Shown one piece after another: positions 2-57,727 of a DNA stretch of 64,000 nt (within the stretch, counting starts at the first letter, position 1; every line of letters begins with the position of its first letter). The notes under the pieces were generated by a model. The model was not told the origin of the DNA. It saw only the letters and a program-made list of their open reading frames with translations, and ran no database searches. The DNA is from a bacterium (lineage in GTDB: Bacteria; JADJOY01): the NCBI GenBank assembly GCA_046331705.1, contig JAXLQJ010000003.1:62001-126000 (forward strand), given 5' to 3'. A program made the position numbers and the translations under genes.

Positions 2-1285
2 ACGTCGGCGTCCTATCCGTGGTCGTATGGACACTTCGTGAACGGCGTGTTCCGCACGGTCATGTCATACGACACCGAATGCACCCTCGGCTGCCCTCGG
101 GCGCAGCGTTTCTCCAACCCCAACGTGAGCTACAGCGGCTTCGCGACCGGAATCGCCGACCAGCGCGACAACCATCGCACCTTGAATTCGACGATGCCGA
201 TCGCCGCGAGCTTCCGCGTCGCGGTGCAGGCCGCCGATCGAGTGGGTGATCTCGACGGCGACAGCCAAGACGACGTCTTGGGTCCCGTGCCCAGCGCCTC
301 CGACGCTGTCGTGTCGCTCTCCTTGGGCGGACCCTTCGGCCATCCGAGCGGCTGGACCTCCGAAACCGACGGCGACGATGGCTGGTACGTGGGCGATTTC
401 ACCGGCGACGCCGTGACGGACGTGCTGCGGTTCGAATCGGGTGTGTGCGGTGCCCGGGTGCTCTTCTCCAACGGCACGGCGTTGGCGTCGACGTCACCCG
501 CAGGGTGCTGGACGGGCCTCGGTCGTGGCGATGATGGCTGGTACGTCGGCGATTTCGACGGCGACGGCCGCGACGACATCTTCCGCTACGTCGCCGGCAA
601 TTGCGGCGCCGACATGTTGCTCTCCGACGGGACCGCGTTCGTACGCGGCACCGTCGCCTGTTGGACGGGCCTCAACCATGGCGACGATCACTGGCGCGTG
701 GGTGACTTTGATGGCGACGGTCGCGACGACATCTTCCGTTTCCAATCCGGCATCTGTGGCGCGGACGTGTTGGTGTCCGATGGCACGTCGTTCGTACGTG
801 GAGCGATCGGCGGATGCTGGACCGGGCTCGGCCAGGGGGATGACGGCTGGTACGTCGGCGACTTCAACGGCGATGGACGGGACGACCTCTTTCGCTACAT
901 CGCCGGCAACTGTGGCGCCGACATGTTGCTCTCGAGCGGCACGGCGTTCGTGCGCGGCGCCGTCGATTGTTGGACGGGGCTCGGCCATGGAGACGACCAC
1001 TGGCGCGTGGGTGATTTCGACGGCGACGGACGCGACGACATCTTGCGCCTCGATGTCGGCAAGCCCGACGTTCTGCTTTCCAACGGTGACAGCTTCTGCC
1101 ACGACTGCGACGGCGACGGCCTCCTCAACAGCGACGACAACTGCCCGCGCGCCGCAAATCCCAACCAAGAGGACGGCGATCACGACGGCGTGGGCGATGC
1201 CTGCCTCCCGCGCTCGGTGTTCCGCGACGGCTTCGAAAACGGCGACCTCTCCGAGTGGTCCGGGTCGAGCGGCGACTCGACGTGA
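2..1285 (+). CDS. Secreted multidomain protein, 5'-truncated: end of a reprolysin/M12-like metalloprotease domain, FG-GAP/VCBS-like repeats, thrombospondin type-3 repeat, C-terminal FxDGFExG tail
   Basis: The frame is open from base 2 ([23 protein letters not shown]). RTVMSY...RFSNP resembles the Met-turn region of M12-type proteases. Repeated [10 protein letters not shown] motifs follow, then DGDG..DNCP...[16 protein letters not shown]. Ends [18 protein letters not shown]. Confidence 0.8.
350..1100 (+). repeat. Five intragenic tandem repeats of about 153 bp (51-52 aa)
   Basis: WTG(L)...GDD(G/H)W(Y/R)VGDFxGDGRDD...CGAD.L.S.GT.F units. Units 2-5 start near 507, 660, 816 and 969. Confidence 0.85.
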
Positions 1286-1352
1286 CTTGCCACGATCTCG
1301 AGGGGAATGCCTTTCCGACACACGACGTGAAGGAGATTCGCTTCTACAGCGG

Positions 1353-1830
1353 ATGACGCTCAGAGACGAGCAGCGAGAGCTGATCTTCTGCCGGGCCATG
1401 CAGGCGTTCCCAAGCGTCGACCTCGGCCTCAACCTCAGCGCCCCGATCGAATACGACGACTCGGCCGCCTGCGATCGAGTCGTGGTCGGATCCTGGAACG
1501 CGGATCACCCGTGCGTCGCCACGATCTCGGGTGCCAGCATCAGCGCCCGGTGCGACGTCGGGAAGTAACGCTGCGTCGGCCTCCAGAACGGCTTCGCCGA
1601 GTGCGTCTTCCAGGGCACCACTACGGTCACGATCGCCGGCACGACGAGCGAGGGGCCCGACGACAACGGGGTGACCCACGTGAATGCAAGCGACTCGCAG
1701 ATCGGCGCGCCCGTGACGAGGTGTCGATCGGAGTACGGCTACGATTCATCGCCCTGCATCCACCGACCGAACGGCACGCCGGTCACACCGAACGACGCCT
1801 GCGCCGTCGCGCCGCGAGCTCGTGGAGATC
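1353..1830 (+). pseudogene. Possible interrupted Cys-rich hypothetical gene
   Basis: ATG at 1353 (MTLRDEQRELIF...) runs to TAA at 1566-1568. The same frame continues with protein-like sequence (RCVGLQNGFAECVFQGTTTVTIAG...). The end point is uncertain. Confidence 0.3.
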
Positions 1831-4126: not shown

Positions 4127-5358
4127 GAGCCCACCCCCCGCCCCTTCTCGCGCTCGATGCCCAAGGCATCCATGTAGGGGCCGAAGCGCTCGTGGATCTG
4201 CTCGCGGGTGATGCCGTAGTCGACGCCCTGGTATTGGTGCTTGCCGTGCTTCCCGGGCGGATGGGATCGCTGGTGCTGCTCGAGCGCCGCGCGACCCGCC
4301 TCCGAAAGCGGCTGTCCCCAATGGGCGAGTGCCTTCTCCGCGGTGCCGACCGGATCGCGCATGAAGTCGCGGAAATGGACGTCGTAGAAGCGATCGGGGT
4401 GACGCTGCCGCGCCGCCAGCGCGCGCTCGGCGGCGACCGCCCACACTTCCATCTGGTGAAGGGCGACCTCGCGGCGCGGCGCTTCGCGCTCCTGCAGCTT
4501 CCGAAAATGGGTGCAGAGGCTCACGTACGAGTCGAGGATCGCCGCCGGATCGCGATGGGTCTGGATGATGCACGCGTCGGGGTAGACCTCGAGCAGCGCG
4601 TCGATGTGCCGGATGTGCACCGGATACTTGAGCAACCAGCGCTTGCCGCGCTCGTTGGCGCCGATGATCTGCAGCAAGCGACGGTGGCGCCGATACGAGC
4701 CCACGTGGTCGCGCGAGCCGTACCACGCCGCGTAGGTGGGCACGTGGTTGCCGACCTCGAAGCAATCGTCCGTGAAGCTCTGCGCCAGGAGGTGCCGGCA
4801 CTCCTCGGGGCCGCCGGCGGTGATGTGGTGGATCGCCTCCAATCCCTCACCGAGGCCATACATCATCGCCAGCTCGCCGCGCGCGGCCCAGTAGTCCCGA
4901 CGCATCTGCCAGGTGTGTCGCGGCGGACGCGGCTGCACGTGGGTGGCGAGGAAGAACTCGAGACACTGGGTGTCCGGATTCGCGCCCATCAAGTAGTGGA
5001 GCGCTGTGCTGCCGGTGCGCACGATGCCGGTGATGACGAGCGGGCGCTCGATGGGCACAGCGTGGAATTCGGGGTGCTCCTTCCACCATTTGTTCGAGAG
5101 CAGCCGGTTGGTGAGCAGACCCACCACCTGGTACTCGGCGAGCCATCGGCCCAGCGGGTGCAACCGCGATTCGTCGTCGTACGAGCCCATCAAGATCTCG
5201 AAGGGCTCGCGATAGTCGGTGTCGCCGAAATCGTCGTAGCCGCTGGCTACGCGGATGGCCTTCTCGTGCAGCTCGTCGACGCGCTGGCGCCACGGCTTCA
5301 CGCGCTTCTCGAATACTTTCCAGATCGGCAGCGTCGCCGACCTCTGGATCAGGTCCAT
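4123..5358 (-). CDS. PAPS-dependent sulfotransferase (mycobacterial Stf / Sulfotransfer_3 type)
   Basis: ITGIVRTGSTALH (5'-PSB loop), WLLKYPVH, THRDP....S (3'-PB). Alternative GTG start at 5364. Confidence 0.9.
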   Translation of the reverse strand: MDLIQRSATLPIWKVFEKRVKPWRQRVDELHEKAIRVASGYDDFGDTDYREPFEILMGSYDDESRLHPLGRWLAEYQVVGLLTNRLLSNKWWKEHPEFHAVPIERPLVITGIVRTGSTALHYLMGANPDTQCLEFFLATHVQPRPPRHTWQMRRDYWAARGELAMMYGLGEGLEAIHHITAGGPEECRHLLAQSFTDDCFEVGNHVPTYAAWYGSRDHVGSYRRHRRLLQIIGANERGKRWLLKYPVHIRHIDALLEVYPDACIIQTHRDPAAILDSYVSLCTHFRKLQEREAPRREVALHQMEVWAVAAERALAARQRHPDRFYDVHFRDFMRDPVGTAEKALAHWGQPLSEAGRAALEQHQRSHPPGKHGKHQYQGVDYGITREQIHERFGPYMDALGIEREKGRGVGS

Positions 5359-5360
5359 GA

Positions 5361-6185
5361 TCACGGGGCGATCTCCAGTGGCACGGCGCTGGCCTCGAGC
5401 TGCCGCGCGGTGAGATGGTCGACGAGCGCGGGAAGGACGCGACGCAAGCCGAGCAGCAAGCGGTTGCCGGAGGGGAACACGATGCACGCTCGATTGCGCG
5501 CGACACCGCGCAAGATGGCGCGCGCGGCGGCGGTGGGCGTGATGGGGCGGATCGGCGCCGCCTCGACGGTGGCGCGGTAATCGTATCGACCGATCGGTTC
5601 GGCGGCGTCGAAGATGCCGGTGGCGACCAGTCCGGGGCACGCCACCGAGACCCGCACGCCGTAGCGGCGCGCTTCCGCGCGCAGCGCCAGACTGAAGCCG
5701 ACCACCGCGTGCTTGGACGCCGTGTAGACGCTCGACCAGGGCACCGGCATGAGCCCCGCCGAGGACGCGGTGTTCACGACGTGACCGTGGCGCTGGCGAC
5801 GCATCACGCGGCACGCCGCACGCGAACCGTGGATCACGGCCAACGTGTTGACGCGCATCATCTTCTCGATCGCGGCCTCGCTCATGTCGGCGAGCTCGCC
5901 GCCGGCCACGATGCCCGCGTTGTTGAAGAGGAGATCGAGGCGACCGCGCCGCGCGGCGTGGTCCTCGATCGCGGCGCCGTAGGCGCGGGAGTCGGCGAGA
6001 TCGAGCACCAGCGGCTCGAACGTCGGGCTCGCGAGCCGGGCCGCGGTCGCAGCGAGACCCGCCGAGTCGCGATCGATGCCGAGCACGAGGACGCCGCGCG
6101 CCACCAGCTCGCTCGCGAGCGCGGCGCCGATCCCCGAGGCCACCCCGCTCACGATCGCCACCCGCCCCGCAAGGTCGCTCGTCAC
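5361..6185 (-). CDS. Classical short-chain dehydrogenase/reductase
   Basis: SGVASGIG, LFNNAGI, NTASSAG, YTASK. Confidence 0.93.
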   Translation of the reverse strand: MTSDLAGRVAIVSGVASGIGAALASELVARGVLVLGIDRDSAGLAATAARLASPTFEPLVLDLADSRAYGAAIEDHAARRGRLDLLFNNAGIVAGGELADMSEAAIEKMMRVNTLAVIHGSRAACRVMRRQRHGHVVNTASSAGLMPVPWSSVYTASKHAVVGFSLALRAEARRYGVRVSVACPGLVATGIFDAAEPIGRYDYRATVEAAPIRPITPTAAARAILRGVARNRACIVFPSGNRLLLGLRRVLPALVDHLTARQLEASAVPLEIAP

Positions 6186-10431: not shown

Positions 10432-12603
10432 TCAGGGCGCGCTCGACCCCCAGTTGTCGATGTTGCCGCTCTCGAAGTCGTCGGCGAACACGTACCAGCC
10501 CTTCATCCGCTGGATGAAGATCTCCTCTTCGTCGTTCACCAGGGTGCCGGTGTTGTCGTCGCCGCCCCAGACCACCAGGAACTGACCGTTGGCGGCGTTG
10601 GCCGCGACCGCGACCTCTTGCGTCTGGTACGTGGTGTTGCCGAGCCCGCCTGCATCGGAGACACGCTCGTCGTTCGGGCCCGCGCCCACGATGGTGCCGG
10701 TCATGCGCTGGGCGAAGACCTCCCACTCGTTGTTGACCATGCCGTCGACGGTGTCCTCGCCGGACCAGACCGCCATGTATTCGTCGTCGATCGGGTTGTA
10801 GACGACGTCCGGCCCCCACATCACCTGGTACGTGGCATCGCCGACGCCGCCTGCGTCGCTCACGCGATAGTCGTTGCTGCCGAGGCCGCCGAGGGCTGCG
10901 TCCATGCGCTGCGAGAACACCTCGAACTCGTTGTCGACGAGCCCACCGACGTCGTCGTCACCCAGCCACACCACCAGGTATTGGTTCGCTTTCGGGTTGT
11001 ACGCCACGGCCGGCGCGTACGCCCCGTACGTCGGATCACCGGTGCCGCCCATGTCGCTCACGCGAGCGTCGTTGGTGCCGACGCCACCACCGAACTGATC
11101 CATGAGCTGGGCGTAGATCTCGAACTCGTCGTCGACCAGCGAGCCGCTGTCGTCGTCGCCCGTCCACACGATCAAGTACTCCAAATCCTCGGTGTTGAAG
11201 GTCACGTCGGGCTGGATGGCGTCGTAGGCGGGGTCGCCGGTTCCACCCATGTCACTGATGCGCAGGTTCGAACCGACCGGAACACCGGTCGAGTACACGC
11301 GCTGTGCCCAGATCTCGTTCTCCTCGTCCACCAATCCACCGGTGTTGGTGTCGCCGTCCCACACCACCAGGTACTCGTCCGGGCTGGGGTTGTAGGTGGC
11401 GGATGGTCGGTTCGCGTCGTAGTCGCGGTCGCCGTCCGGCCCCATGGTGCTGATCCGGAAGTTCCCGCCGTATTGGGGGAAGAGGTATGCGTCGACCACC
11501 TGACCCCAGATCTCGAACTCGCCGTCCACCAGGTCGCCGTCGGGGCTGTCTGCCGACCACACGACCAGAAACTGGCCGTACGTGGAATTGAAGGCGATCG
11601 CCGGATCGTGGGCCTTGTAGTCCGCGGTACCGGTGCCGCCCGCGTAGCTGATGCGGACGTCGCTGTAGCCGGTCTGGCTGCCGGAAGCGGTGATGACCTG
11701 GCCGAAGATCTCGGTCTCCCCTTCCACGAGGCCGCCCGTCGAGTCGTCGCCTTCCCAGACCACCACGTAGGTGTCGTTGATGCTGTTGTACGCCACCGCC
11801 GGCTTGAAGGCGTCGTAGGCCGGATCGCCGTTGGGGCCCATGTCGCTGATGCGCACGTCGTTGCTACCGATCTCCGGATCGATCGTGACCGGATAGGCGG
11901 CGCTCGCCAGCGCGGCGCCGTTCACCACCAAACGCGTGGCGGTTGCCGAGACGTCGAAGCTGCACGGGATCACGCGGCCGTCGGCGTCGAAGACCCGGGC
12001 GTCGCCGAGCCACACCTCGGCGCCATCGCCACGCCACTGCCAGCGTTCGGGGCCGCGCTCGTGACGCCCGCCCGAGCGAATCGTTCCCGTGACGACGAGA
12101 TCGCCGCCGGCGAGCGGTAGCGCGCTCGGCACCACGAAGCGCTGCTCGAAGGAGTTGGTGTCGAACCGATACTCCTCCCGCACGCGGCCGCGGTCGTAGC
12201 GGACGTTTCCGTCGACTGCGCGGACCGGCGTCACGGGCTCGATCGCAACCAGCTCGGCGCCTGCCGACGAGCGCACGCTCGCCAAGGTCCACCGCCAGTC
12301 GGGCGCGCCGCGCACACCCCACACGCGCACGCCGTCACTCGTGAAGTCCACCGTGCGCCGCGGATGCGAGAGCCGCAGCCCGCCGGCGATCGGCTCGACG
12401 CGATTCACCGCCAGGCGCGCGGCCGCCTCGCGATCAGGCCTGCCGCGTGCGTCCGGTGCGCTCGCTGGGTCCGGAAGCGTCGGTGAGCGTTCGACGATCC
12501 GCTCGTCGGCCCGCGAACGCTCGCTCGTGCGAGCACCACTCGCCGAGCAACTGCTCAGCGTGACCAGAATCACCAGGCCGGTGGCGACGCGGCGCAGATC
12601 CAT
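10432..12603 (-). CDS. Secreted (possibly lipo-) protein: N-terminal domain ending YPVTIDP, seven acidic repeats of about 66 aa, C-terminal FADDFESG tail
   Basis: Signal peptide MDLRRVATGLVILVTLSSC. Repeats RISDMG..GD..YDA..P...YN.....YLVVW.GDD..G.LVD.E.EI..Q. GGAGG RBS. Confidence 0.85.
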   Translation of the reverse strand: MDLRRVATGLVILVTLSSCSASGARTSERSRADERIVERSPTLPDPASAPDARGRPDREAAARLAVNRVEPIAGGLRLSHPRRTVDFTSDGVRVWGVRGAPDWRWTLASVRSSAGAELVAIEPVTPVRAVDGNVRYDRGRVREEYRFDTNSFEQRFVVPSALPLAGGDLVVTGTIRSGGRHERGPERWQWRGDGAEVWLGDARVFDADGRVIPCSFDVSATATRLVVNGAALASAAYPVTIDPEIGSNDVRISDMGPNGDPAYDAFKPAVAYNSINDTYVVVWEGDDSTGGLVEGETEIFGQVITASGSQTGYSDVRISYAGGTGTADYKAHDPAIAFNSTYGQFLVVWSADSPDGDLVDGEFEIWGQVVDAYLFPQYGGNFRISTMGPDGDRDYDANRPSATYNPSPDEYLVVWDGDTNTGGLVDEENEIWAQRVYSTGVPVGSNLRISDMGGTGDPAYDAIQPDVTFNTEDLEYLIVWTGDDDSGSLVDDEFEIYAQLMDQFGGGVGTNDARVSDMGGTGDPTYGAYAPAVAYNPKANQYLVVWLGDDDVGGLVDNEFEVFSQRMDAALGGLGSNDYRVSDAGGVGDATYQVMWGPDVVYNPIDDEYMAVWSGEDTVDGMVNNEWEVFAQRMTGTIVGAGPNDERVSDAGGLGNTTYQTQEVAVAANAANGQFLVVWGGDDNTGTLVNDEEEIFIQRMKGWYVFADDFESGNIDNWGSSAP
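10490..11870 (-). repeat. Seven intragenic repeats of about 200 bp (probable beta-propeller blades)
   Basis: Seven R(I/V)S...VW...E(I/V) units counted in the translation. Confidence 0.85.
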
Positions 12604-12935: not shown

Positions 12936-14858
12936 TCAGGGCACCGAGGAGCCCCAATCCAAGACGTCGCCCTCCTCGAATCCGTCGGCGAAGAGCCAAT
13001 CGGCAGCGCGCTCCACGGCGTGATCGCCCCGCACCAGTCCGTGCCCGCTCTCGAAATCGACTCCCGCCGCGCCCATGTTCTCGGCCGTGCTCTCGAGCAG
13101 GTGGTAGACCTGCACCGGCGGCAGGCTCGAGTTCTTCTGACGCACCAGCGCCGCCAATCCCGCGGCATGCGGCGCCGCCGCCGAGGTGCCGAAGAAATTC
13201 GGCGAGGTGTCGAGGTCGCTGCCGTCACCCGGATCGCTGATGTCGGAGCCGCCGAAGAAGGTCGTGTTGGTGCCGTCCGGCGCCACGAGATTCGGCTTCT
13301 GGCGCACCACGTTGATGGGATTGTCGTTCAGATCCCAGAGCGTCGGGGTGCCGCCGATCGAGGAGAAGCTCTCGAGCACGGCCGGGCTGGTGCCGAACGG
13401 CGGCGTCTGGAAGTAGAACGCCGCGCCCATCGAGCGCGCCCCGCGCGCGTTGGCGTGGCCGTAGCTCGACGCGGTGTTGGTGGCGTACTCGTTCACGACC
13501 ATCGACGATCGGAAGTACGTGTACTTGAGCAAGGCCGGCGCCGATCCCTGGTGCACGCTGATCGCGATGTTCGCCAGCGTCGCGCCTCCACCGTTGCTGA
13601 TGCCCATGATCTCGATCGGGTCGCCGCCGACGTTGGCCGTGTGGATGCCGATCACCGGGCTGGTGGGCGGATCGAGGTACAGCCAGAAGTCGAGGTCCGA
13701 GGTCGCGCCGGCCCCACCGCTCGCGGACGCGTAGGGCGAGCTCCACTGAAGCACGATCTGTGTCGTGCCGTTCGGGATCGTCACCTTCTGGTAGACGTCG
13801 ACGCCCGGACCGGGATCGAAGTCGTGGCCGATGTCGTTCTGGTAGCCGAACGGCAATCCTGCCGGCGACGTCCCGCTGGAACGGAAGGGTGCGTCGTAGG
13901 CCTGGCGCGCCTGATTGCCCGCCGAGGAGAAGTACGGGACACCCGCGGCGACGACCTCGTCGACGGCTTGGGCGATGATCCCGTCCTGGAACATCGGCTC
14001 GGCGAAGTAGATGACGTCGTCGTTGATGACGTCCGCGCCCGCGGTATTCGCCAGCGCGAGGATGCCGGCGGCGAACGCCGCCTGGCCGCCGTTCGCCGTG
14101 TTGAAGGCCTGCGCGGCGCCGGGCGCCACGTCGGCGATCAGCTCCATCATGCCGCGGCCCTCGTCCGTCTGACCGGAGCACGAGGGCGCCTCCGCCAGCA
14201 CCGTGACGCCCGCCGGCAGATCGCCCGAGGTGACTCCCGCCGGCGCGCCGCCCAGGCAGTTGTAGCTGTTCGAGAGCGTACCCACGACCATGCCGGCCCC
14301 GGTCACGCTGCTCGCCGGGCGGGCCACGTCGGTGCGCATCGCCTCGTCTCCCTGGCTGAGCACCGAGCCGGTGTTGGTGGTGTGGTAGGCGGGTCGCGCG
14401 AAGCGCAGCGCGCTGGCGTCGGCCATCGCCAGCAGCGCCGCCACGGGCATGCGCCCCGACACCACGTGCCGGTAGCGGGCCACCTGCCCCATTCCCAGCG
14501 CGGCGAGCTGCGTGCGCAGGCGCCCGCCCTCACCCGCCGCGGCGACCGCGTCGATCACGACCCCGTTCTCGTCGAGATCGAGCATCGTGTTCGCCGAGCG
14601 GAACGGCCCTGCCGCGTGGCTCTGCTGGAAATCTCGATGTTCCAGGTAGAGCGCCAAGAGGTCCGGGCCGAGCTTGCGGCCCGGACCGGAGTCGGTCACC
14701 AGATCCGTGCGCGCGCTCGTGAGCGCCGTGAGCGCGGGAGCGGCCACCGCTTGCTGCGCTCGTGACGCGATCGGAAACGCGAGGCAGGTCGCGGCCGCCA
14801 TCGTCGTGAGCGCGAGGCGCCGCCTGCGGGAACGATTCACCGAAGTCGCAGCTTCCAT
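12936..14858 (-). CDS. Secreted subtilase-fold serine protease (S8 / S53-like subgroup) with propeptide and C-terminal FADGFEEG tail
   Basis: Signal peptide; TDEGRGMMELIADVAPGA, YFSSAGN, KPNLVAPDG, FFGTSAAAPHAAG. GAGGAG RBS. Confidence 0.88.
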   Translation of the reverse strand: MEAATSVNRSRRRRLALTTMAAATCLAFPIASRAQQAVAAPALTALTSARTDLVTDSGPGRKLGPDLLALYLEHRDFQQSHAAGPFRSANTMLDLDENGVVIDAVAAAGEGGRLRTQLAALGMGQVARYRHVVSGRMPVAALLAMADASALRFARPAYHTTNTGSVLSQGDEAMRTDVARPASSVTGAGMVVGTLSNSYNCLGGAPAGVTSGDLPAGVTVLAEAPSCSGQTDEGRGMMELIADVAPGAAQAFNTANGGQAAFAAGILALANTAGADVINDDVIYFAEPMFQDGIIAQAVDEVVAAGVPYFSSAGNQARQAYDAPFRSSGTSPAGLPFGYQNDIGHDFDPGPGVDVYQKVTIPNGTTQIVLQWSSPYASASGGAGATSDLDFWLYLDPPTSPVIGIHTANVGGDPIEIMGISNGGGATLANIAISVHQGSAPALLKYTYFRSSMVVNEYATNTASSYGHANARGARSMGAAFYFQTPPFGTSPAVLESFSSIGGTPTLWDLNDNPINVVRQKPNLVAPDGTNTTFFGGSDISDPGDGSDLDTSPNFFGTSAAAPHAAGLAALVRQKNSSLPPVQVYHLLESTAENMGAAGVDFESGHGLVRGDHAVERAADWLFADGFEEGDVLDWGSSVP

Positions 14859-16055: not shown

Positions 16056-16066
<11 letters not shown>
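14960..16066 (-). CDS. hypE: Hydrogenase maturation carbamoyl dehydratase HypE
   Basis: [52 protein letters not shown]-terminal LPRIC. Confidence 0.97.
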
Positions 16067-17176
<1,110 letters not shown>

Positions 17177-17180
<4 letters not shown>

Positions 17181-23910: not shown

Positions 23911-23915
23911 CGCGC

Positions 23916-42836: not shown

Positions 42837-42946
42837 CGCGTAGAGCGCGACCCACGCGCGCTCGCGGATCGCGAGTCCCCGGGGCGCTCGATCGTTGGCG
42901 AGGGGCGCGGGCTCCGGCCCGCTCGCCGGCGCGCCCGGGTGGCGGC

Positions 42947-43954
42947 TCAGGCTAGCTCGACCTCAGCCGCGAATCCCGGCACATCCACCGCCGGGCAGGG
43001 AATGGACTCGCCGAGGCGAGCGGCACGGCGCGCGAAGATGGCGCGTCGCCGCGACCACATCTGCGGCAGCTGCTTCACGATGTCGACGTAGGCGGGCAGA
43101 AGATCGCGATCCCACAGCAGCGCGTACGCGAGTCGCACCGCCTCGAAGCCCGCCACCACCGGCAGATCCCGCATCAACCGCGACGCCCGCTCGTTCTTGA
43201 GGATCTGGAAGCAGTGGTTCTTGAACGAGTGGCAGCGGATCGCCGAGGGCATGGCGCGACGGGACGCGGCGCTTTCCGGCTTCCAGCGCCGCTGGTGAAC
43301 GGCGCGCGCCGCGGGAACGTAGAGGACGTCGAAGCCGAGCAAGTTGGCTCGCCAGCACAGATCGGTGTCCTCGCGGTACGCGAAGAACGACTCGTCGAAC
43401 ACTTCGCCATCCACCTCGAGCGTGCCCAGTGCCGAGAGCCGCAGCATCATCGCCGCGCCGCACACCGCGAAGACGCGCTCGGTCTCGTCGTACTGGCCGT
43501 GGTCGAGCTGAAAGCTGCCGCGATCGTAGGGACGGCGATGACGAGGAAGCGAGATGCCGGCGCTGTCGATGCGCGTGCGACACGGCCTGAGGAGCTTCCC
43601 GGACGCGAGAGCCACGCTGCGATGCGCCCGCAGCTCGTCCAGCAGGCGTTCCGCGTAGTCGGGCTCGAGCTCGATGTCCGGATTGAGCAGCAGCGCGGCT
43701 TCGGGGAGATACGGATCGGCGCGCCCCTCGGCCAAGAACCGGTTGGCGCCCGCGCCAAAACCGCGGTTGGGAACCAGCGACCAGCGCACCGTCGGGAAAC
43801 GCTTGGCGAGTGCCTCTGCCTGGACGGGATCGCCGTCCGCGTCGACCACCCGGATCCAGGCCGGCGGGATGGTCTGACGGGTCAGGCTTTCGAGGCAGGA
43901 CGCCAGGTCGTCGTAGGTCTTGTAGTTGACGACCCCTGCGACATAACGCGTCAT
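42947..43954 (-). CDS. GT2 family glycosyltransferase (WbbL-like)
   Basis: VVNYK, NRGFGAGAN, LLNPD, CGAAMMLR, FDESFFAYREDTDLCWR. Confidence 0.92.
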   Translation of the reverse strand: MTRYVAGVVNYKTYDDLASCLESLTRQTIPPAWIRVVDADGDPVQAEALAKRFPTVRWSLVPNRGFGAGANRFLAEGRADPYLPEAALLLNPDIELEPDYAERLLDELRAHRSVALASGKLLRPCRTRIDSAGISLPRHRRPYDRGSFQLDHGQYDETERVFAVCGAAMMLRLSALGTLEVDGEVFDESFFAYREDTDLCWRANLLGFDVLYVPAARAVHQRRWKPESAASRRAMPSAIRCHSFKNHCFQILKNERASRLMRDLPVVAGFEAVRLAYALLWDRDLLPAYVDIVKQLPQMWSRRRAIFARRAARLGESIPCPAVDVPGFAAEVELA

Positions 43955-44471
43955 CAGGCCCCCGAACGCGCTCGGCACGACAGCGCGCGGTGCGGTTTGG
44001 CGGATTGAAGCACAACCCGAAGATCAGGGGAAGTCCCCGCCACGAAAGGATTCTGGCCGGAGGTGCCAATCGTCATGGCGCCCCAGGGTGACGCCACGCG
44101 CAGGCGCTGCCAAGTCCGCGGGCCAGGCTCGGGCTGCGGTTCGACCGCCGGCCGTGCCACTCGGGCGACGGGGCCGGGCCGGGTGGAGGGCCGTGCGGCG
44201 TCCGGCGTGAGGGGACCGCGCCCCGGCGATGACCCGGGACCCGTGGTCGGTCGCACCGCGAACCGCCGTTCGGGCCGAGCCCATGGCAGTGAGAGGCCAG
44301 GCCAGGGCAAACCGCCCTGCCGAGCGGGACGTCGGGCCGGCCGAGGCGGGCTCGAGACATCGCTCCCGCTCGCCGCCCAAGCAGTCGATGGGCGCGGCCG
44401 GCGTCACGGGCCGGGGGGGGGCCGGGTAGGCCCACGCGATGCGAGCCGGTGCCACGCCAGGCGACCGACGG

Positions 44472-45881
44472 TCAGAAGCCCACCGCGCTGTAGAGGAGGG
44501 GGTTTTTCTTGTTGGTGAAACCGGGAAATCCCGTCGAGAAGCCGACGATGTAGAACTGGTCGCCGAGCTTGGCGATGCCTCCCGGCGTCTGCTCGGTGTT
44601 GTCGGCGCACGCGACGCTCGACTGGTGGCAGAAGTTCGGTGCTGCGGCCGCGTCCTTCATCAGGCTGCTGGCGTCGAGCCGCACCAACGACGTATCACCG
44701 CCCGAGCCCCCGCTCTTGGCGGCGCCGATCACGTAGACGTAGCCGCGGCCGCGGTCGTTGTCGATCGCGACGGTGCGCGTGAAGCGCGACTCCGCTTCCG
44801 GCGGCAGATAGGGCGCCGCGGTCTGCGCGGCGAGGCCGAGGTCGAACTTGAGGACGAAGCTGCCGCTCGGCACCCCGCCGAAGAAGTTGGCGAGGTAACC
44901 ACCCACGTACACACCCGTCGCGTCGACCACGGCCCCCGCCGTCGCGACCGGGCCCAGGAAGGGATTCGGATGCGCCCAGGGGGTCGCGGCGACCGGCGCC
45001 TCGGGCGGCGTGTCACCGAGGTCCGTGTAACGCAGCACCAGCGCCTTGGCGCCCACGCCGGCGATGCCGCCGCCGCCCTGCCGGCCCGCGACGTAGATGT
45101 ACCGGGCGCCGCCACTCGCGTAGATCGCCAGCGCCCCGTCGGCGGCGTCGTAGTGGCCCTTCGATCCGCCGCCGCTCACGTGGTAGGTCGTCGCCCAGAT
45201 CGGTAGGCCCGTGCGGCCGTCGAAACGCGCGAGCCCTACCTGCCCTTCCACCCCGGGCGCATAGCTGCTGTTCGGCACGCCGTGGTGCCCCGACACGGTG
45301 ATGCGATTCTCGTCCGGATCGACGTAGAGCCCGTCGATCTCGTCGTAGCCGTTGGTCACACCGTAAAGCGCCGCGCCGTTGCTGCTGACCGAGTAGCGCG
45401 CTCCGGTCGACGACCAGAGGCCACCGGCGTTGGCGCTCCACGGCACCGGCGCGCACGGCTCCTTCGTGAATCGCATGATGTACCAATACGACTCCGCGGC
45501 AGCACCCGGGCCGTCGTGACTCGCACCCGCCACGTAGAGGTAGCGGTTGCCGGCGAACGCCACGAACGGCTTCGCGACCTTGCCGGGGCCGCGCGGATTG
45601 TTGCTGGTGTTGTTGCTGGTGCTGTCGATCGCGTCGAGCGCGCGGTTCGAGAAGTATCGCGTGCACGCGATCTTGTCCTCGGCGTGATCCTGGTAGAACG
45701 CGTAGACGTTCCCCTGCGGATCGATCGTCACCGCGAAGGCCTCGTCGCCGAACCGTGTCGCCGAGGGCGTGCCGAGCGACGGCGACCAGCTGGTGTCGAA
45801 TCGCGGCGCGCCCGCCTGCGCCCTGCCCCCCAGGAATACCGCTGCTGCGACGGCGGCGATCGTTCGGGCCGACTGCTTCAC
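44472..45881 (-). CDS. Secreted hypothetical protein, probable beta-propeller
   Basis: AGGAGG RBS, signal peptide ending AQA, blade-like strands (AVTIDPQGNVY, YLYVAG, YIYVAG, VVDATGVYVGG, YVYVIG). Confidence 0.75.
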   Translation of the reverse strand: MKQSARTIAAVAAAVFLGGRAQAGAPRFDTSWSPSLGTPSATRFGDEAFAVTIDPQGNVYAFYQDHAEDKIACTRYFSNRALDAIDSTSNNTSNNPRGPGKVAKPFVAFAGNRYLYVAGASHDGPGAAAESYWYIMRFTKEPCAPVPWSANAGGLWSSTGARYSVSSNGAALYGVTNGYDEIDGLYVDPDENRITVSGHHGVPNSSYAPGVEGQVGLARFDGRTGLPIWATTYHVSGGGSKGHYDAADGALAIYASGGARYIYVAGRQGGGGIAGVGAKALVLRYTDLGDTPPEAPVAATPWAHPNPFLGPVATAGAVVDATGVYVGGYLANFFGGVPSGSFVLKFDLGLAAQTAAPYLPPEAESRFTRTVAIDNDRGRGYVYVIGAAKSGGSGGDTSLVRLDASSLMKDAAAAPNFCHQSSVACADNTEQTPGGIAKLGDQFYIVGFSTGFPGFTNKKNPLLYSAVGF

Positions 45882-46305
45882 GAATGCTTCCTCCTGTGCG
45901 ACGCGGGCGCGCGAGTCTGGCGCCACGACGGGCCGGACAGCAACTCGCGGCGCGAGCGGCGGGGCGAGCGGCCGCGCAGCCTCGAACGGCGAGCGAGCCC
46001 CACCTCGCGACGCGCGCCCGAGCCACCGAGCACGCCGCATGCCGGAGGAGACATCGGACCGGGTGAGCGCCGCTTCGCTGCGCGATGCGAGCATCGCTCC
46101 GCGCACCACCGCCAGCACGGCCCACGCGCCAACCGCTGACGATCGTCGCCACCTCTGGCGAACATCGTCGGCAGCCCTGACGAGGATCGTCGGCGGCTCG
46201 CCCCGGTCGATGAGCAGGGCGAGTTGCGGCCCACGCAACGATTCCCGCGCTGCCCAGCGGTGATCCGTCACGCCCTGGCCCACGGCGATGGGCGAGAGAA
46301 CATCT

Positions 46306-46321
46306 TGGTTCCCGATTTGCT
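46306..46321 (+). promoter_or_regulatory. Candidate sigma54 promoter for the TonB receptor operon
   Basis: TGGTTCCCGATTTGCT (GG-N10-GC, consensus TTGCT at -12), about 120 nt upstream of the ATG at 46442. Confidence 0.55.
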
Positions 46322-46441
46322 GAGTGGGCACGGGCCGAGACCCGGGTTTCCCCAGCAGAGGATCTGACATGATCGGGCCGCCAGCGGGCGCCCGCGCGTG
46401 GGGTGCGGCGGTCGCGCTGAACGAAGGAACGAGCTCTCCCG

Positions 46442-48559
46442 ATGCCTGTCCGGCCTTCCGCCTTGCCGCCAGACCACACCTGTCAGCGATTCGCCGTTGG
46501 CCGCGCCCTGCTCTGCCTGGCGCTGGCGATCACGCAACCCTGTCGCGCTGCGCGCGCCGAGCCGCCCGCGGAGGCGCCGCTCGCCGACGAGGACGCGTAC
46601 CTGACCAGCGAAGAGGGCTTCGTCTACGCGCCGCTCAAGCGTCGCCAGCCCATCGCGCGCTCGCCCAGCTCGGTCCGCGTGTTCACGGCGGACGAGATCC
46701 GCGCCTCCGGCGCCCGCAACCTGGGCGAGTTCCTGCGCCGCCTCCCCGAGCTCTCCCGCGAGGTGCTGAGCTCCGGCGAGACGGCGATCGACGGCGCGCG
46801 CGGCGTGGGCGGCGAGATGACGATCTTCCGCTTCCTCGAGGTGCGCCTGGACGGTCGCTCGGTGCGTCAGGAATGGCTCGGTGTCGTGTTCTACGAGCCG
46901 TTGCCCATCTTCCTCGACGACGTGAAGCGGATCGAGATCATCCGAGGTCCCGCGGGCGCGCTCTACGGCGAGTCCGGGCTCAACCTGGTGATCGACATCC
47001 GCACCCGCACGCCGGAGGAAGCCCAGGGCACCCAGCTCCAGGTCGCGGCTTACGGCCCCACGCAAGGCTTCGAAGCGTCGGGAGTCCACGGGCTGGCGCT
47101 GGGGCCGGTGTGGAGCAAGCTCTCCGTGAGCTATCGCTCGCTCGACGAGTTCGACTCGGTCGTCCCGCCACAGGACGACGGCGACGACACCGCGAGCAAG
47201 GGGTTGCGCGTCGCGAGCCGCAGCGCCCTGGATCTCGGCCACGACGGACGAATCGAGGCCGAGCTCGGTTACACGGACGGCAGCGTGGACGTGCTGCTCG
47301 GTGCGCCGCTGTCGCTCCACGGCGCCTCCGAGCGCAGCGCGCTCGTGAGCTACGACCGCGAGCTTCCCTTCGGCTCGCTCGCAGCGGAGTGGACGTGGAC
47401 CGAGTTCGCCACCGAGGTCGTCCCGCCGCGCGGCGCCGAGGCCGCGCGGGTCCACGCCGACTCGTGGAGCGGCGAGATCCGGCACACCGCGCCCCTACCG
47501 CTCGCGCAAACGCTCGTCTCGGGTGTCTCCTACCGCTACGTCTCGGCGCGCGGAGATCTCTTCGACGAGTCCCGTGCGCTCGACGACCTTGGGCTCTTTC
47601 TCGCCGACGAGATCGACCTCGGCGCGAACCTGACGGCGTACGCCAACCTCCGCGGCGAGCTGCTCCAGCCCTCCGGATCCGAGATCCTCCCGGGCGGCAG
47701 CCTGGTCTGGACGCCGGCCGAAGGACACACGCTGCGGGCCAGCGTGGGGCGCGGTGTCGCGGCCCCGTCGCTGTTCGGGCTCCACGGCGCCTTCAATCTG
47801 AGCCCGGGCCTCAAGAACATCGGCCCGCCGTTCGACACGCTCGACTTCGTGGTCCTCGGCAACCCCGACCTCGAGAGTCAGGCGCTCACGTCGTACGAGC
47901 TCGGCTACCGCGGCGTGGGGCTCGACGGACGCGTCACGGCGGTCGTGAACGGCTACTTCCAGGACGTTCGCAAGCTCGCGGCCGCAGGCTATTTCCGTCC
48001 CGACACCATCGGTTTCGAAGACGGCCGGCTGCAGATCGGGATCCCGATCGCGAACCGCTACAGCTACCACGTGGTCGGCGGCGAGGCGTCGCTCGAGCTG
48101 CGCCCGCTCGCGTGGCTGCGCATGGAGCTCGGCTACGCGCTGGCACACGTGCTCGACGAGCACGATCTCGTGTCCGGCGCGCCCAGCCACGCGATCGGCG
48201 ACGTGACCCGCCAGCACCGCGGCCTCGCGCTGGTCGGCGTCGACTTCCGCAAGGGCACCATCCCGGCGCCGTGGCTGCGCCCGTTCGATGCCGAGATTTC
48301 CTTCCAGGCGACCTCGACGTCCGAGGTCGAGACGCTTCCGAGCCAGATCGGCGCCGGGCGCTACCCGATCCTCGCGGGCTTCCTCGGCGAGCCGACCACG
48401 CGGCCCGGCGACCGCTACCTGAACGCACGTCTCGGCTGGACGCTGATCCCTTCGACGCTCGAGGTCGCGCTCGAGGGATGGAACTTGCTCGGAACCAGCA
48501 TCCCGCTGTGGGTGGATGGCACGCGGCTGCTCTCGCTCCGGATGACGGTGGGCTTTTGA
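46442..48559 (+). CDS. TonB-dependent outer-membrane receptor
   Basis: Plug motifs SPSSVRVFTADEIRASGARNLGEFLR, V.LDGR, RIEIIRGPAGALYG; GNPDLES...SYELGYR; C-terminal Phe. Confidence 0.9.
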   Translation: MPVRPSALPPDHTCQRFAVGRALLCLALAITQPCRAARAEPPAEAPLADEDAYLTSEEGFVYAPLKRRQPIARSPSSVRVFTADEIRASGARNLGEFLRRLPELSREVLSSGETAIDGARGVGGEMTIFRFLEVRLDGRSVRQEWLGVVFYEPLPIFLDDVKRIEIIRGPAGALYGESGLNLVIDIRTRTPEEAQGTQLQVAAYGPTQGFEASGVHGLALGPVWSKLSVSYRSLDEFDSVVPPQDDGDDTASKGLRVASRSALDLGHDGRIEAELGYTDGSVDVLLGAPLSLHGASERSALVSYDRELPFGSLAAEWTWTEFATEVVPPRGAEAARVHADSWSGEIRHTAPLPLAQTLVSGVSYRYVSARGDLFDESRALDDLGLFLADEIDLGANLTAYANLRGELLQPSGSEILPGGSLVWTPAEGHTLRASVGRGVAAPSLFGLHGAFNLSPGLKNIGPPFDTLDFVVLGNPDLESQALTSYELGYRGVGLDGRVTAVVNGYFQDVRKLAAAGYFRPDTIGFEDGRLQIGIPIANRYSYHVVGGEASLELRPLAWLRMELGYALAHVLDEHDLVSGAPSHAIGDVTRQHRGLALVGVDFRKGTIPAPWLRPFDAEISFQATSTSEVETLPSQIGAGRYPILAGFLGEPTTRPGDRYLNARLGWTLIPSTLEVALEGWNLLGTSIPLWVDGTRLLSLRMTVGF

Positions 48560-55185: not shown

Positions 55186-55255
55186 GCCCGCCGAGATCGT
55201 CGCGTCCGCACGTGCCGCGAGCGGCGCCCGCGGCGCCGGGTGGACGCCGCGGTCT

Positions 55256-57727
55256 TCAGCCGCCCTGGGTGCTCGACCACGCGGCGACGCCACCGGACTC
55301 GAAATCGCCGTCGAAGATCGCGGTTCCGGTGCGAACGGCCACGAAGCCCTGCCCTACGGCGCCACCCTCCTCGGCGATCAAGAAGCCGCGATAGACGGTG
55401 CCTGCCGTGGGGTGCAGCGCCGTCGAGCCCGACGCGGCGGGATTCGCGAGCGCCACGCCCTGGTCGATCGCTTCCTCGAGGAAGGTTCCGGAATCGGTGC
55501 TCCACGCCAGGCTGCTCGTGCCACCAGGCGCGACCACGTACGGTGTCGCGACCAGCGTGGTCGCCGGCAGCGCGCCGGCCGTCACGGTGTCGCGGACCGT
55601 CTGGCCGCTCACCACCAGCGCGTGCTGGCCGACGCTCGGCCGCGAGTCGAGCCCCGTGTAGCCGGTGCGCGCCTGTCCATCGACGGTGGCTTGCGTCGCG
55701 CCCGTCCAGGCGTAGGCGAGATCGGATTCCGCCGCGCCGTCCGAATCGCCCGCCGCTCCCGCCGGCAGCTGCTGCGTGGGAATCGCCCAGATCGCGCCGG
55801 CCTTGGGTGCGCTCACGGCGCCGCCATTGTCGTGAGTCGGTGCCTTGACCGTGCTGGTGCCGTTCGATCGGTTCACCACCAACGCGTTGAGGCCGGCGGC
55901 GTTCTTGGTCCCCGCCATCGAATGCAGGTAGTCGAAGCTCGTGTCCGGATAGAACGTGTTGCCGCCGTATTGGACGGCGTTGATCGGACCATTGGTGTAA
56001 TCGCCGTCCAGGATCGTGAAGGCGCTCGGCCCGGTGTTGTCGCTGAGCACGCAGTCGGTGACCGTGCCCGCAACGTTCCGCGGAGCGCCGGGTCCTCCGC
56101 CGCCGTCGGGCGCGAAGAAGATCGCGGCCCCCGAATGACTGTTGGTGAGCGAGTTCTCGACCAGGTACGAGCCATCCAGCGCCAGGCTCGCGCCCAGCAC
56201 CCAGATGGCGCCGCCGCTCATGCGCGCGGTGTTGAGCGCGAAGAAGCACCGCGCGACCGTCGCCGTGGTGTCACTGAAGAGCGCGAGCGCTCCCCCCGCC
56301 GCGTCGGCCGAGGTGGCGGAGCGCGCGTCGGATTGCATCAGCAGCGAGTCGCTCAGCGTGAGATCGGCGAGGCTGGCGGCGATCGCACCGCCGTAGCCGC
56401 CCTGGCTCGAGTCGCCGAGGACGTCGCAGTCGGCGAACACGACGCCGCTGAGCACCGCGGGCGCGCGGTTGCCCGCGAGGCCGCCCTGCGCGGGCACGCC
56501 GGTGCCGTAGGCGCGCGACGTGTCCCCGCCCACGAACACGCACCCGCCGAGGCGCCCGTTCCCCACGCCATCGGAGGCGCCCTCGAAGAGCGTGTCGTCC
56601 ACGGTGAGCGTTGCTGCGCGCCGATTGGTGGCACCCGAGTTGGTGCTGGAGTCGTTCACGTCGTCCGAGTGGATGAATAGCGCGCCGCCGTTGCCCTGGC
56701 CCGAGCCAGTGCCCACCGCGGCGTTGGCGCGGAAGATCGAGTGCTCGATGGCGGTGATGCAGCGGTAGCAGCTCAGCGCACCGCCGCCTTGCGACTCGTT
56801 GCTCTCGAAGCGCGAATGGAAGATGCGCAGCGTCGTCTGGTCCTCGCCGTGGATCGCGCCGCCCTCGGTCGCGCCGGGAGCGGTGACGCCGGCCGCGGGG
56901 CTCGCGACGTTGTTCACGAACGTGGAGTTGGCGATCAGCACGTCCGCGGCGGGGGTGGCGACGGGATCGGTCCAGGACCCGAGCGCGTAGATGGCACCGC
57001 CGGCGTAGCCAGCGCCGTTGCCCTCGAAGCGTGACTGAGTCACGCGCAGCGTCGCGTCGACCACGGCGATCGCGCCGCCGAAGGCGTTGTTCTGGTGGCC
57101 GGCGACGTTCGTGTGGTTGTCGATGAGCTGCGAGCCGTGGACGAAGACCCGTGACCCCTCGTACGCGAGGATCGCCCCACCCGCGAGCTTGGCGGTGTTG
57201 CCGCTCATGAGCACGTTCGAGAAATACGCCGTCGACCCGAGTCCCACGGAGATCGCGCCGCCGCCGTTGGTCACCGTGACGGAGGTGTTCTGCAGGAACT
57301 GGCAGTCGACGAAGGTCACGGTCGCGTTCGCCAGCGTCACACCGGCCCCGATTCCCGCGGTGTTCGACCGGCCGTTGGCGATGGTGATCCCCTCGAAGAC
57401 CAGCGGCCTGCCGGTGCCGGGGGTATTCATCACCCGCAGCACGTCCGTGGTTCCGCCGCCGCTCAACACCACGCTCGCGCCGGGAGCGGCGCGCACCGTG
57501 TAGCGCTTGGTCGCGCTGAAGATCTTGAAGCCGCCCGACGGCGCGACGTAGGTGCCGCTCGCCAGTTCGATGACGCCGCCGTCGGAGACCTGGCTGAGCG
57601 CGGCGGTCAAGGTTGCCGCGTCGGCGGGCACCCGCACCACGGTCGCTGCCGATGCCGCGGTCGCGACGACCGCAAATGCCAGCGAGATCGCGAGCCAATG
57701 GGAAGCGGCGACGCGCACGAACGGCAT
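55256..57727 (-). CDS. Secreted right-handed beta-helix protein (Pmp-like GGAI/FxxN repeats) with C-terminal FDGDFESG tail
   Basis: Signal peptide, VRVPAD..TL.AA, many GGAI/GGAL plus F..N motifs, no autotransporter barrel. Confidence 0.85.
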   Translation of the reverse strand: MPFVRVAASHWLAISLAFAVVATAASAATVVRVPADAATLTAALSQVSDGGVIELASGTYVAPSGGFKIFSATKRYTVRAAPGASVVLSGGGTTDVLRVMNTPGTGRPLVFEGITIANGRSNTAGIGAGVTLANATVTFVDCQFLQNTSVTVTNGGGAISVGLGSTAYFSNVLMSGNTAKLAGGAILAYEGSRVFVHGSQLIDNHTNVAGHQNNAFGGAIAVVDATLRVTQSRFEGNGAGYAGGAIYALGSWTDPVATPAADVLIANSTFVNNVASPAAGVTAPGATEGGAIHGEDQTTLRIFHSRFESNESQGGGALSCYRCITAIEHSIFRANAAVGTGSGQGNGGALFIHSDDVNDSSTNSGATNRRAATLTVDDTLFEGASDGVGNGRLGGCVFVGGDTSRAYGTGVPAQGGLAGNRAPAVLSGVVFADCDVLGDSSQGGYGGAIAASLADLTLSDSLLMQSDARSATSADAAGGALALFSDTTATVARCFFALNTARMSGGAIWVLGASLALDGSYLVENSLTNSHSGAAIFFAPDGGGGPGAPRNVAGTVTDCVLSDNTGPSAFTILDGDYTNGPINAVQYGGNTFYPDTSFDYLHSMAGTKNAAGLNALVVNRSNGTSTVKAPTHDNGGAVSAPKAGAIWAIPTQQLPAGAAGDSDGAAESDLAYAWTGATQATVDGQARTGYTGLDSRPSVGQHALVVSGQTVRDTVTAGALPATTLVATPYVVAPGGTSSLAWSTDSGTFLEEAIDQGVALANPAASGSTALHPTAGTVYRGFLIAEEGGAVGQGFVAVRTGTAIFDGDFESGGVAAWSSTQGG

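Follow-up and report, generated by a model that had tools for sequence, protein, structure and literature searches.

A short tail at the end of many exported bacterial proteins resembles the first hairpin of a jelly-roll domain and may dock on the rest of that domain

In the cohesin-dockerin system, unrelated secreted enzymes with one terminal module dock non-covalently on a shared and often SLH-anchored partner, the tags being terminal or duplicated. In chaperone-usher pili, a fold that lacks a strand is completed, outside the cytoplasm, by a strand of another polypeptide, and in the engineered SpyTag/SpyCatcher pair a short peptide and a catcher, both from one split CnaB domain, are joined by a covalent isopeptide bond. 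The C-terminal domain of type IX secretion system (T9SS) cargo is a complete beta-sandwich of 70-100 residues, which a translocon recognises and PorU cleaves off. The jelly-roll subunits of archaeal cannulae are reported to use donor-strand complementation (bioRxiv 10.1101/2024.12.30.630787), and PEP-CTERM/exosortase, MYXO-CTERM/myxosortase, GlyGly-CTERM/rhombosortase and LPXTG/sortase are reported as C-terminal signals with membrane enzymes (bioRxiv 10.1101/2023.06.07.544157, PMC11980579, PMC3237569). Here we analyse a tail of about 20 residues at the C-termini of four exoproteins encoded in a 64,000-nucleotide stretch of bacterial DNA (the window, G000:C3:62001-126000), part of an 8.17-Mb assembly (G000) with 70% G+C in 118 contigs, from a phylum represented in our collection by six species genomes (G000-G005). 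The tail is probably a docking tag derived from a split jelly-roll domain, through which many proteins would share one acceptor by strand complementation, rather than a sortase or translocon signal.

Translation of the window open reading frames (ORFs) confirmed the tails at the ends of all four exoproteins, where a reading made from the sequence alone had placed them, on passengers that are unrelated according to Pfam (Table 1). A census of the window found these four tails only. The first passenger (P0001) combines a reprolysin M12 protease (Reprolysin_5/3/4) with FG-GAP_3 and TSP_3, and a signal peptide is recognisable by eye in its full ORF. The signal peptides reported earlier are indeed present on the carriers, two of them being of particular kinds: P0002 has a lipoprotein-type signal (lipobox LVTLSSC, window 12603-12540, minus strand), and that of P0003 is Tat-like (SRRRRLAL, with its RRRR run, window 14858-14760, minus strand). 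The tail is therefore carried by Sec, lipoprotein and possibly Tat cargo.

A loose regular expression run over the 40,544 stop-to-stop ORFs of the genome gave 50 matches, 39 of which end 2-9 residues before the stop codon; in 23 of these 39 a proline is the last residue, exactly four residues after W[ST]. A profile trained on 44 of the same tails that it then counted gave 61 matches of at least 15 bits in the genome, 56 of which lie no further than 6 residues from the stop; in the reversed ORFs nothing reached 12 bits. The tail pattern lies far beyond chance, and the whole-genome scan called for in the sequence-only reading thus yields some 56-60 tails, nearly all no more than 6 residues from the stop. 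The motif proposed there, [VLI]FxxxFExGx[LIV]xxW[SG], has to be corrected to [VIL]FxDxFExGxxxxW[ST]xxxP-stop, with G and W invariant and F, F and E at least 90% conserved among the 44 paralogous tails, in which the conserved element is 20-26 residues long (for example ...IFEDDFESGGTSRWSSTHPA). Neither the four window tails nor the 44-tail alignment contains a hydrophobic helix or a basic cluster, and no Pfam or NCBIfam model lies over the tail, in whole proteins or in tails alone, even at E<=10, apart from faint echoes of NTTRR-F1 (2 of 44 tails, E 0.053) and CBM_4_9 (2 of 44, E 0.21).

The passengers of 60 carriers, as classified by Pfam (S8, M12, S9, FG-GAP, beta-helix/PMP, BNR, PPC, DUF5122, GDSL, LamG, Omp28), are typical extracytoplasmic ones, and by eye most carriers begin with Sec, lipoprotein or Tat-like signals with clear AxA sites. 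A crude hydrophobicity heuristic called 45 of 52 tail bearers signal-peptide-like, as against 247 of 600 background ORFs, an enrichment that lends weak support because the background is high. The earlier claim of a C-terminal tail on exported proteins is thus upheld as a strong tendency but not as an exclusive one, since 5 of the 61 genome matches lie elsewhere. Two of these copies start no more than 3 residues from the predicted signal-peptide cleavage site (in one example ARA precedes the cleavage site and ATPIFGDDFAPGNTCRWSAHAPADAC follows it, and an FGE-sulfatase domain comes next), and a third starts about 30 residues after it. There is also a tail variant with two cysteines, GxxCxW...PxxxC. 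Four proteins of G000, namely L037 (C16:105442-106509), C31:40898-43534 and two further ORFs on C8 and C16, contain a Cys-bridged module (VYQNGFESADxCAW..P..C or PIFGDDFAPGNTCRW..) about 245 residues before the C-terminus; in L037 this module directly follows the signal peptide and the remainder is an FGE-sulfatase domain.

The origin of the tail became visible in a comparison with 1.84 billion representative proteins, where a 30-residue tail profile found 4981 matches at E<=0.001. Among the best 150 of the 4981, ranked by summed score and so biased to multi-copy proteins, 109 have internal copies only and 41 have a C-terminal copy; the copies are spaced 190-310 residues apart in 78 proteins and stand in tandem, no more than 45 residues apart, in 25. 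All 17 single-copy proteins of this set carry their copy at the C-terminus, and the median score was 36.7 bits for C-terminal copies and 26 bits for internal ones. The internal copies recur every ~217 or ~290 residues and form the first strand of a repeated domain, which we call the X domain. Several metagenome proteins (P0047, P0087, P0052, P0075 and others) have two or three tandem copies with short or PT-rich linkers, situated C-terminally or upstream of S8 protease domains.

The boundary of the domain and that of the motif nearly coincide. In P0043 the motif occupies residues 190-207 and PF14099 (Polysacc_lyase) residues 196-369 (profile positions 1-193, 51 bits against a cut-off of 29.9), and at another copy CBM_4_9 aligns from its profile position 3; the Pfam matches start within about six residues of the motif start. 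In many exoproteins of other bacteria, and in some of this phylum, motif and domain stand side by side at the C-terminus. In the cis proteins the motif is followed by ...DGGDLSVS..AAL.GS.GLQ, most database homologues reading IFADGFESGNLSAWSS..DGGDLSVS and continuing with the domain. An AlphaFold model of a complete cis domain is a jelly roll whose nearest solved folds are the PL36, PL20 and PL7 lyases (TM 0.5-0.62), with the motif as strands 10-14 and 25-28. The beta-helix carrier of the window (P0004) is colinear over residues 322-820 with a G005 homologue (49% identity, E 3e-138), through the motif; there P0004 stops, and the homologue runs on for 195 residues of X domain. Its homology to the cis hairpin identifies the tail as the first beta-hairpin (strands 1-2), now detached, of a ConA-like jelly roll of about 200 residues. 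The sequence-only reading had regarded an integral strand of a known carbohydrate domain as the contrary case to a sorting tag, and in a sense the motif is one, as it forms the first strand in the cis jelly rolls.

The rest of the domain is encoded separately. A profile of the 217-residue repeat unit has a single match in G000, from profile position 24 to the end, and this match is a protein (P0180, hereafter the acceptor) whose signal peptide, ending in AKA before a mature AP, is directly followed by the domain without its hairpin (MIRTHTQWRSAFLTTAIVAALVAIGGVAKA before the cleavage site, APTLNVNASAAMGG... after it). Relatives were found, besides G000, in G001 (92% identity), G002 (94%) and G005 (nine matches), and were not found in the tail-less G003 and G004. 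G005 has two stand-alone copies, with signal peptide and without hairpin, as well as complete copies at the C-termini of large proteins, and one of its stand-alone acceptor genes is immediately preceded by a tail gene ending in LLFADGFESGTTAAWSLTVP-stop. Acceptors begin, directly after the signal peptide, at position 24 of the cis-unit profile or at positions 2-5 of a hairpin-less profile. The domain of P0180 and six other acceptors has no Pfam family (E<=0.01) and no NCBIfam family, and the relation of the acceptors to the PF14099-kind domain rests on custom profiles, as curated models miss them. An outer-membrane export machine, which had been proposed as the partner of the tail, is not what we found: the co-occurring partner is a small soluble protein with a signal peptide, namely the rest of the tail's own domain.

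Within the phylum, tails are either abundant or missing. Tail matches number 60 in G000, 57 in G001, 80 in G002 and 122 in G005, the HypD proteins of the last three being 85%, 85% and 63% identical to that of G000, and there are none in G003 (86% complete, HypD 82% identical) and G004 (74% complete, 80%). The tail-less genomes are thus close kin, and the trait is all-or-none. In 35 genomes of other lineages no tail was found in 34 and a single match in one. At the DNA level, the pattern F-x-D-x-F-E-x-G-x4-W-x4-P-stop occurs in at least 131 stretches of GTDB species genomes; among the 80 matches listed, metagenome-assembled genomes (MAGs) of Thermoanaerobaculia, Holophagae and other Acidobacteriota overwhelmingly prevail, accompanied by a 'Deltaproteobacteria' MAG, Ca. 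Multivoradales, Polyangiaceae and Ca. Sulfomarinibacteraceae, so that the P-stop end is conserved across phyla. In a sample of 151 Acidobacteriota genomes, each at least 85% complete, 10 have tails (E<=1e-4): 50 in G041, at least 56 each in G050 and G160, 7 in one genome and 1-2 in six.

The acceptor follows the tails in these lineages too. With the hairpin-less profile, five tail-bearing genomes of other phyla, chosen by way of loci with the DNA pattern, yielded one copy in four and 20 in the fifth, and each single copy, as well as one of the 20, consists of a signal peptide and the hairpin-less domain; in two of the five (G043, G044) a tail-bearing ORF adjoins the acceptor. The X domain is present in 6 of the 151 sampled Acidobacteriota, including all three with at least 50 tails, which have one domain ORF of 220-235 aa each; the two checked (G050 and G160) are of the signal-peptide, hairpin-less form, and in the other three domain-bearing genomes cis forms are embedded in larger ORFs or lie in broken frames. 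Among 49 genomes picked solely by the tail DNA pattern, one of which (G227, locus L240) duplicates G001 and is not independent, 43 have the X domain, and the best loci of 30 of them, one per genome, comprise 23 of the signal-peptide, hairpin-less form and 7 of the cis form. All 11 tail-rich genomes inspected first have a hairpin-less acceptor with a signal peptide, and in G216 (34 tails), one of the six pattern-picked genomes without a match, the acceptor was recovered by a broader profile of 29 acceptors (E 1.6e-47). Acceptors of this kind exist, have signal peptides, share their truncation point and co-occur with tails.

It could be argued that the tails are leftovers of truncated X domains, or self-sufficient glycan- or metal-binding peptides, and that the co-occurrence reflects an expansion of the X domain. 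The motif is, after all, simply strand 1 of a domain, genomes with cis forms only exist (G047, G171 and G172), and a make-up of F, F, W, D and E would suit sugar or cation binding. We consider this very unlikely, given the at least 90% conservation of F, F, E, G and W in 44 paralogous tails on unrelated passengers, the higher scores of C-terminal than of internal copies and the precise P-stop end kept across phyla. Moreover, in the 11 genomes and the 23 of 30 loci mentioned above, it is precisely the hairpin that is missing from the acceptor, and a signal peptide has been added. Most tail-rich genomes contain a single X-domain copy and thus no expanded family.

The pairing of tail and acceptor was modelled with mature P0180 (residues 31-220, with its own alignment) and the last 30 residues of P0005, a small tail protein (with the tail alignment), in three runs with three controls. 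The complex scored an interaction prediction score from aligned errors (ipSAE) of 0.91 in each run, the best control reaching 0.01; of 157 solved complexes 116 attain the mark used for this score, as do 2 of 215 mismatched pairs. At least 98% of contacts are common to the runs, and the predicted local distance difference test (pLDDT) score of the partner is 78-80. In the model, strand 1 of the tail (I-F-E-D) pairs with acceptor residues 216-218, the last strand, and strand 2 (W-S-S-T-H) with residues 63-68 (V-Y-V-Q-D-D), while the C-terminal end of the tail touches the acceptor N-terminus at residues 31-34. The segments contacted, AYVQDxxPxxE and YxDxFxSxR, show the highest conservation among 29 acceptors. 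The prediction of a complex between the tail and a candidate partner, which the sequence-only reading had suggested as a check, thus indicates structural compatibility.

P0005 also shows how the tail is joined to a passenger. This protein has 232 aa and 22 aligned relatives, of which 14 end in the tail (one in the Cys variant); in four distant relatives the junction is instead followed by VPEP, a hydrophobic helix and RRR, and the PEP-CTERM model TIGR02595 is above its cut-off in the distant homologues P0027 and P0029. Of the remaining relatives, two end in ...ELISFSVD or ...ELLSFEVE and two end otherwise. AlphaFold2, run on the P0005 alignment, gave a confident beta-sandwich for the passenger (pLDDT >85) and an unpacked tail (residues 211-232, pLDDT 44-55), which argues that the tail is not part of the passenger fold. 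That the tail could be a strand or cap built into the fold of each passenger, for which nothing specific speaks beyond the strand-like motif, is therefore scarcely credible: the passenger folds are unrelated, the tail is modelled as unpacked, and homologues bear PEP-CTERM or nothing in its place.

Two side observations concern other C-terminal ends. The ends ...ELISFSVD and ...ELLSFEVE of the P0005 homologues P0022 and P0023 may be another short C-terminal end-tag. In addition, three S8 proteases (L270-L272, from G002, G004 and G003, respectively) that share 65-66% identity with the tail-bearing L010 have, in place of a tail, three Cys-rich metal-binding repeats of the MopE type, so that here too a C-terminal module has been swapped. 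As these closest S8 relatives of L010 are paralogues with MopE-type repeats, they were uninformative on tail loss and were dropped from that question.

The exchange with PEP-CTERM bears on whether the tail is itself a signal for an envelope export or sorting machine, be it a translocon or a sorting peptidase, with the acceptor as unrelated cargo or a minor accessory. The sorting tag proposed in the sequence-only reading gains from this exchange at the same junction, from the all-or-none distribution and from the fixed distance to the C-terminus, with 23 of 39 tails ending in P exactly four residues after W[ST]; it loses from the copies found immediately behind signal peptides, upstream of protease domains or in tandem arrays, which suit a docking module better than a secretion signal that is threaded. 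A signal of the known kinds would also be expected to look different: the tail has no hydrophobic helix or basic cluster, neither the four window proteins nor the 44 tails match PEP-CTERM (TIGR02595/PF07589) or contain a hydrophobic stretch, the MYXO-CTERM and GlyGly-CTERM architecture was not seen in the tails and no NCBIfam model matches on them (the MtsC match on P0001 covers its TSP3 repeats, residues 362-402, and not the tail), and the T9SS C-terminal domain (TIGR04183, PF18962) has no match in the window proteins or the carriers scanned. The disulfide-bridged variant implies a folded module, and the sole co-occurring partner found, in an analysis in which no unbiased gene-content comparison was run, is the soluble split-domain protein. 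The type II secretion system (T2SS) was considered as a discriminating machine and rejected, as its secretin GspD (TIGR02517) is present in all six genomes of the phylum, the tail-less siblings included. A dedicated export or sorting signal is thus an unlikely explanation.

We instead favour the docking tag, and propose the following. In tail-rich genomes, some 50-120 unrelated Sec- or Tat-exported proteins keep only the 20-residue hairpin, ending in ...W[ST]xxxP-COOH, and the rest of the domain is made separately, usually from a single gene, as an acceptor with its own signal peptide, whose mature N-terminus takes up exactly where the hairpin leaves off. Outside the cytoplasm, the tail would insert between the last strand of the acceptor and its conserved YVQDD strand and complete the sandwich by strand complementation, which would let many cargoes dock on one shared domain. 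The acceptor would then tie its cargo to the cell envelope or to its glycans, through fused SLH domains in two genomes and, in G000, possibly through lectin-like binding of the polysaccharide of the surrounding locus. The strict terminal position of the tail would follow from its carboxy end abutting the amino end of the acceptor, and docking of this kind would also account for the occasional copies that are N-terminal or in tandem, for the variant with a Cys staple, for the all-or-none distribution and for the architectural equivalence with PEP-CTERM.

As to where the cargo ends up, SLH repeats (PF00395) follow the acceptor domain in G044 (E 2e-18, 66.5 bits) and G226 (E 3.4e-15, 56.2 bits), and a further acceptor extension, in G238, has look-alike repeats with no Pfam SLH match. 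The surface attachment suggested earlier is plausible in view of the two acceptors with SLH domains, which do not, however, prove a place on the surface. The same tail-acceptor pairing could alternatively serve transit, the acceptor being a periplasmic chaperone or secretion adaptor that presents cargo to the T2SS or keeps it inactive and is later released or recycled. Most acceptors stand alone without an anchor, a T2SS is present, and a PF00884 neighbour of the acceptor gene in four lineages hints at further processing. The SLH fusions, in contrast, point to a static anchor, the presence of the T2SS does not track the tails, and cis domains end exoproteins whose PT-rich linkers may point to monoderm lineages without a T2SS. 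We regard a role in transit as improbable. No chaperone or usher was noticed beside the acceptor genes, although no genome-wide search for them was made.

Several points weigh against a docking tag that anchors its cargo. In the cis-domain model the hairpin itself has modest confidence (pLDDT 53-61), and the complex model indicates structural compatibility rather than binding, because the halves of a split fold can score by their likeness to intact folds; no covariation was seen between the residue after W in the tails and acceptor contact residues 67-69. The related genomes are not independent, and many accessory genes, such as P0002, share the same presence and absence across G000-G004. G212 (48 tails) and G214 (28 tails) have no acceptor even with the broader 29-acceptor profile, and G239 (122 tails, 5.1 Mb), the serious exception, has just a weak cis-like match with it; all three are MAGs without a completeness figure. 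P0180 has neither an anchor module nor a lipobox, SLH is missing from most acceptors too, and SLH domains in diderm bacteria can be periplasmic. One acceptor gene for about 57 cargo genes demands high acceptor expression, a quantity which cannot be measured from contigs. Three things do not yet fit into the docking reading: the tail-rich MAGs that lack an acceptor, the retention of cargo by a stand-alone acceptor, and the PF00884 neighbour.

This neighbour (G000:C3:130128-131777, L199:6128-7777) belongs to the alkaline-phosphatase superfamily, and its open frame starts 4 nt past the acceptor stop, with a likely start codon and signal peptide about 80 codons into the frame. Its nucleophile motif, T-R-P-S-H-F-S-I-L-T-G, has Thr rather than Cys or Ser. 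In G041, G043 and G045, too, the acceptor has a PF00884 gene at its side; orthologues 76% identical lie beside the acceptor in G001 and G002, one of 45% lies nearby in G005, and G003 and G004 have merely paralogues of 32-42%. At the 3' end of the window, a giant glycosyltransferase gene (multi-GT, >1450 aa; window 59650-63999, minus strand) runs over into L199, where it encodes a sulfotransferase domain; an ABC-2 transporter gene is close by, and Wzy_C O-antigen-ligase-like and GT2 genes are found further upstream in the window. P0004 and the acceptor thus lie within a polysaccharide-type locus; flagellin, Wzy_C, GT2 and multi-glycosyltransferase genes occupy window 36822-37754 (plus strand), 40887-44023 (minus strand) and the giant gene just mentioned. 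The acceptor ORF is covered by contigs (L199 ~5322-6135) from sludge metatranscriptomes, four libraries in as many studies, which is consistent with its expression and cannot rank its level; the gene downstream of it has no cover in these contigs, to which no weight attaches. DNA runs point to activated sludge and wastewater as the habitat of the organism.

Table 1 Tails, carrier genes and acceptor gene. Positions are those of the window unless a contig is named.
Feature	Position	Strand	Remarks
Tail of P0001, 22 aa	1217-1282 (with stop 1217..1285)	+	Profile match 29 bits, 3 residues before stop
P0001 carrier gene, 3' part	2..1285	+	Full ORF G000:C3:60925-63285 (L029), start upstream of window
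Tail of P0002, 19 aa	10435-10491 (with stop 10432..10491)	-	VFADDFESGNIDNWGSSAP; P-stop end; profile match 32 bits at stop
P0002 carrier gene, 723 aa from MDLRR	10432..12603	-	7-repeat lipoprotein; no Pfam family
Tail of P0003, 19 aa	12939-12995 (with stop 12936..12995)	-	LFADGFEEGDVLDWGSSVP; P-stop end; profile match 29 bits
P0003 carrier gene, 640 aa from MEAAT	12936..14858	-	Subtilase, Peptidase_S8
Tail of P0004, 20 aa	55259-55318 (with stop 55256..55318)	-	IFDGDFESGGVAAWSSTQGG
P0004 carrier gene, 823 aa	55256..57727	-	PMP-repeat beta-helix; Sec signal peptide
P0180 acceptor gene, 220 aa	G000:C3:129465-130124 (L199 5465-6124)	+	3.5 kb past window end

Elsewhere in the window, the hydrogenase maturation genes hypF-hypC-hypD-hypE (14963-19843, minus strand) lie directly upstream of the tail genes P0003 and P0002. 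G003 keeps the hyp genes, and P0003 and P0002 are missing altogether downstream of them, so that no tail-less syntenic orthologue is available for comparison; orthologues of P0002 were found in G001 and G002 only. Five large ORFs with high third-position G+C have no Pfam family (E<=1e-4; window 22000-24438, 27703-31356, 39164-40648, 44475-46529).

Compared with the described systems, the tail and its acceptor work like cohesin-dockerin and donor-strand complementation and belong to neither. They would share with the former many-to-one docking and a partner that is sometimes SLH-anchored, but a dockerin is a folded Ca-binding module of ~70 residues that sits on a complete cohesin, whereas here a 20-residue hairpin would complete an incomplete fold on a one-site acceptor instead of a multi-cohesin scaffold; no Dockerin or Cohesin Pfam match was found on the 60 carriers or the acceptors. 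As in donor-strand complementation, the acceptor fold is without strands that its complete homologues have. In chaperone-usher pili and cannulae, however, like subunits that are each donor and acceptor polymerise, whereas here ~57 donors would share one acceptor without a donor of its own, and the donated element is the two-strand N-terminal hairpin of the fold, placed at the C-terminus of the donor.

The likeness to sortase-type signals lies in a short tail on dozens of unrelated exported proteins with a many-to-one partner gene. Those signals combine a signature with a transmembrane helix and a basic cluster and are served by a polytopic membrane peptidase; here the partner is a soluble domain fragment, no cleavage is implied, and the motif also occurs at N-termini and in tandem. 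The T9SS domain is likewise a non-membrane C-terminal element on diverse diderm cargo, but it is complete, and the lineages seen here are not Bacteroidota. Closest in derivation is SpyTag/SpyCatcher, with tag and catcher from one split domain, although the present pair is natural, comes from a ConA-like jelly roll and gives no indication of covalent chemistry. In open-access text, no paper on the tail or the split domain was found, and motif strings such as FADGFE gave no match.

Where short C-terminal tags on many exoproteins have been traced to a partner, it has until now been a membrane sorting enzyme or a translocon; here the partner appears to be the rest of the tag's own domain. The lineages in which tag and catcher were seen are Thermoanaerobaculia and Holophagae (Acidobacteriota), the six-species candidate phylum, Multivoradales and a Polyangiaceae. 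That the pair constitutes a natural, secretome-wide system in several phyla, in which 50-120 exported enzymes and adhesins are assembled on the envelope or matrix, with the PF00884 enzyme as a third component, and hence a new principle of sorting and display in diderms, has in our view somewhat less than an even chance of being right. If the docking proposal holds, it would explain an orphan tail that occurs dozens of times per genome in uncultured bacteria of sludge, sediment and soil, and many-to-one strand complementation would join the known ways of protein display. It would also reveal a route from domain to tag, saving ~190 residues per cargo gene, and would provide a natural docking peptide of 20 residues and a catcher of ~190 residues for protein engineering; with both components named and small, the question would be directly testable.

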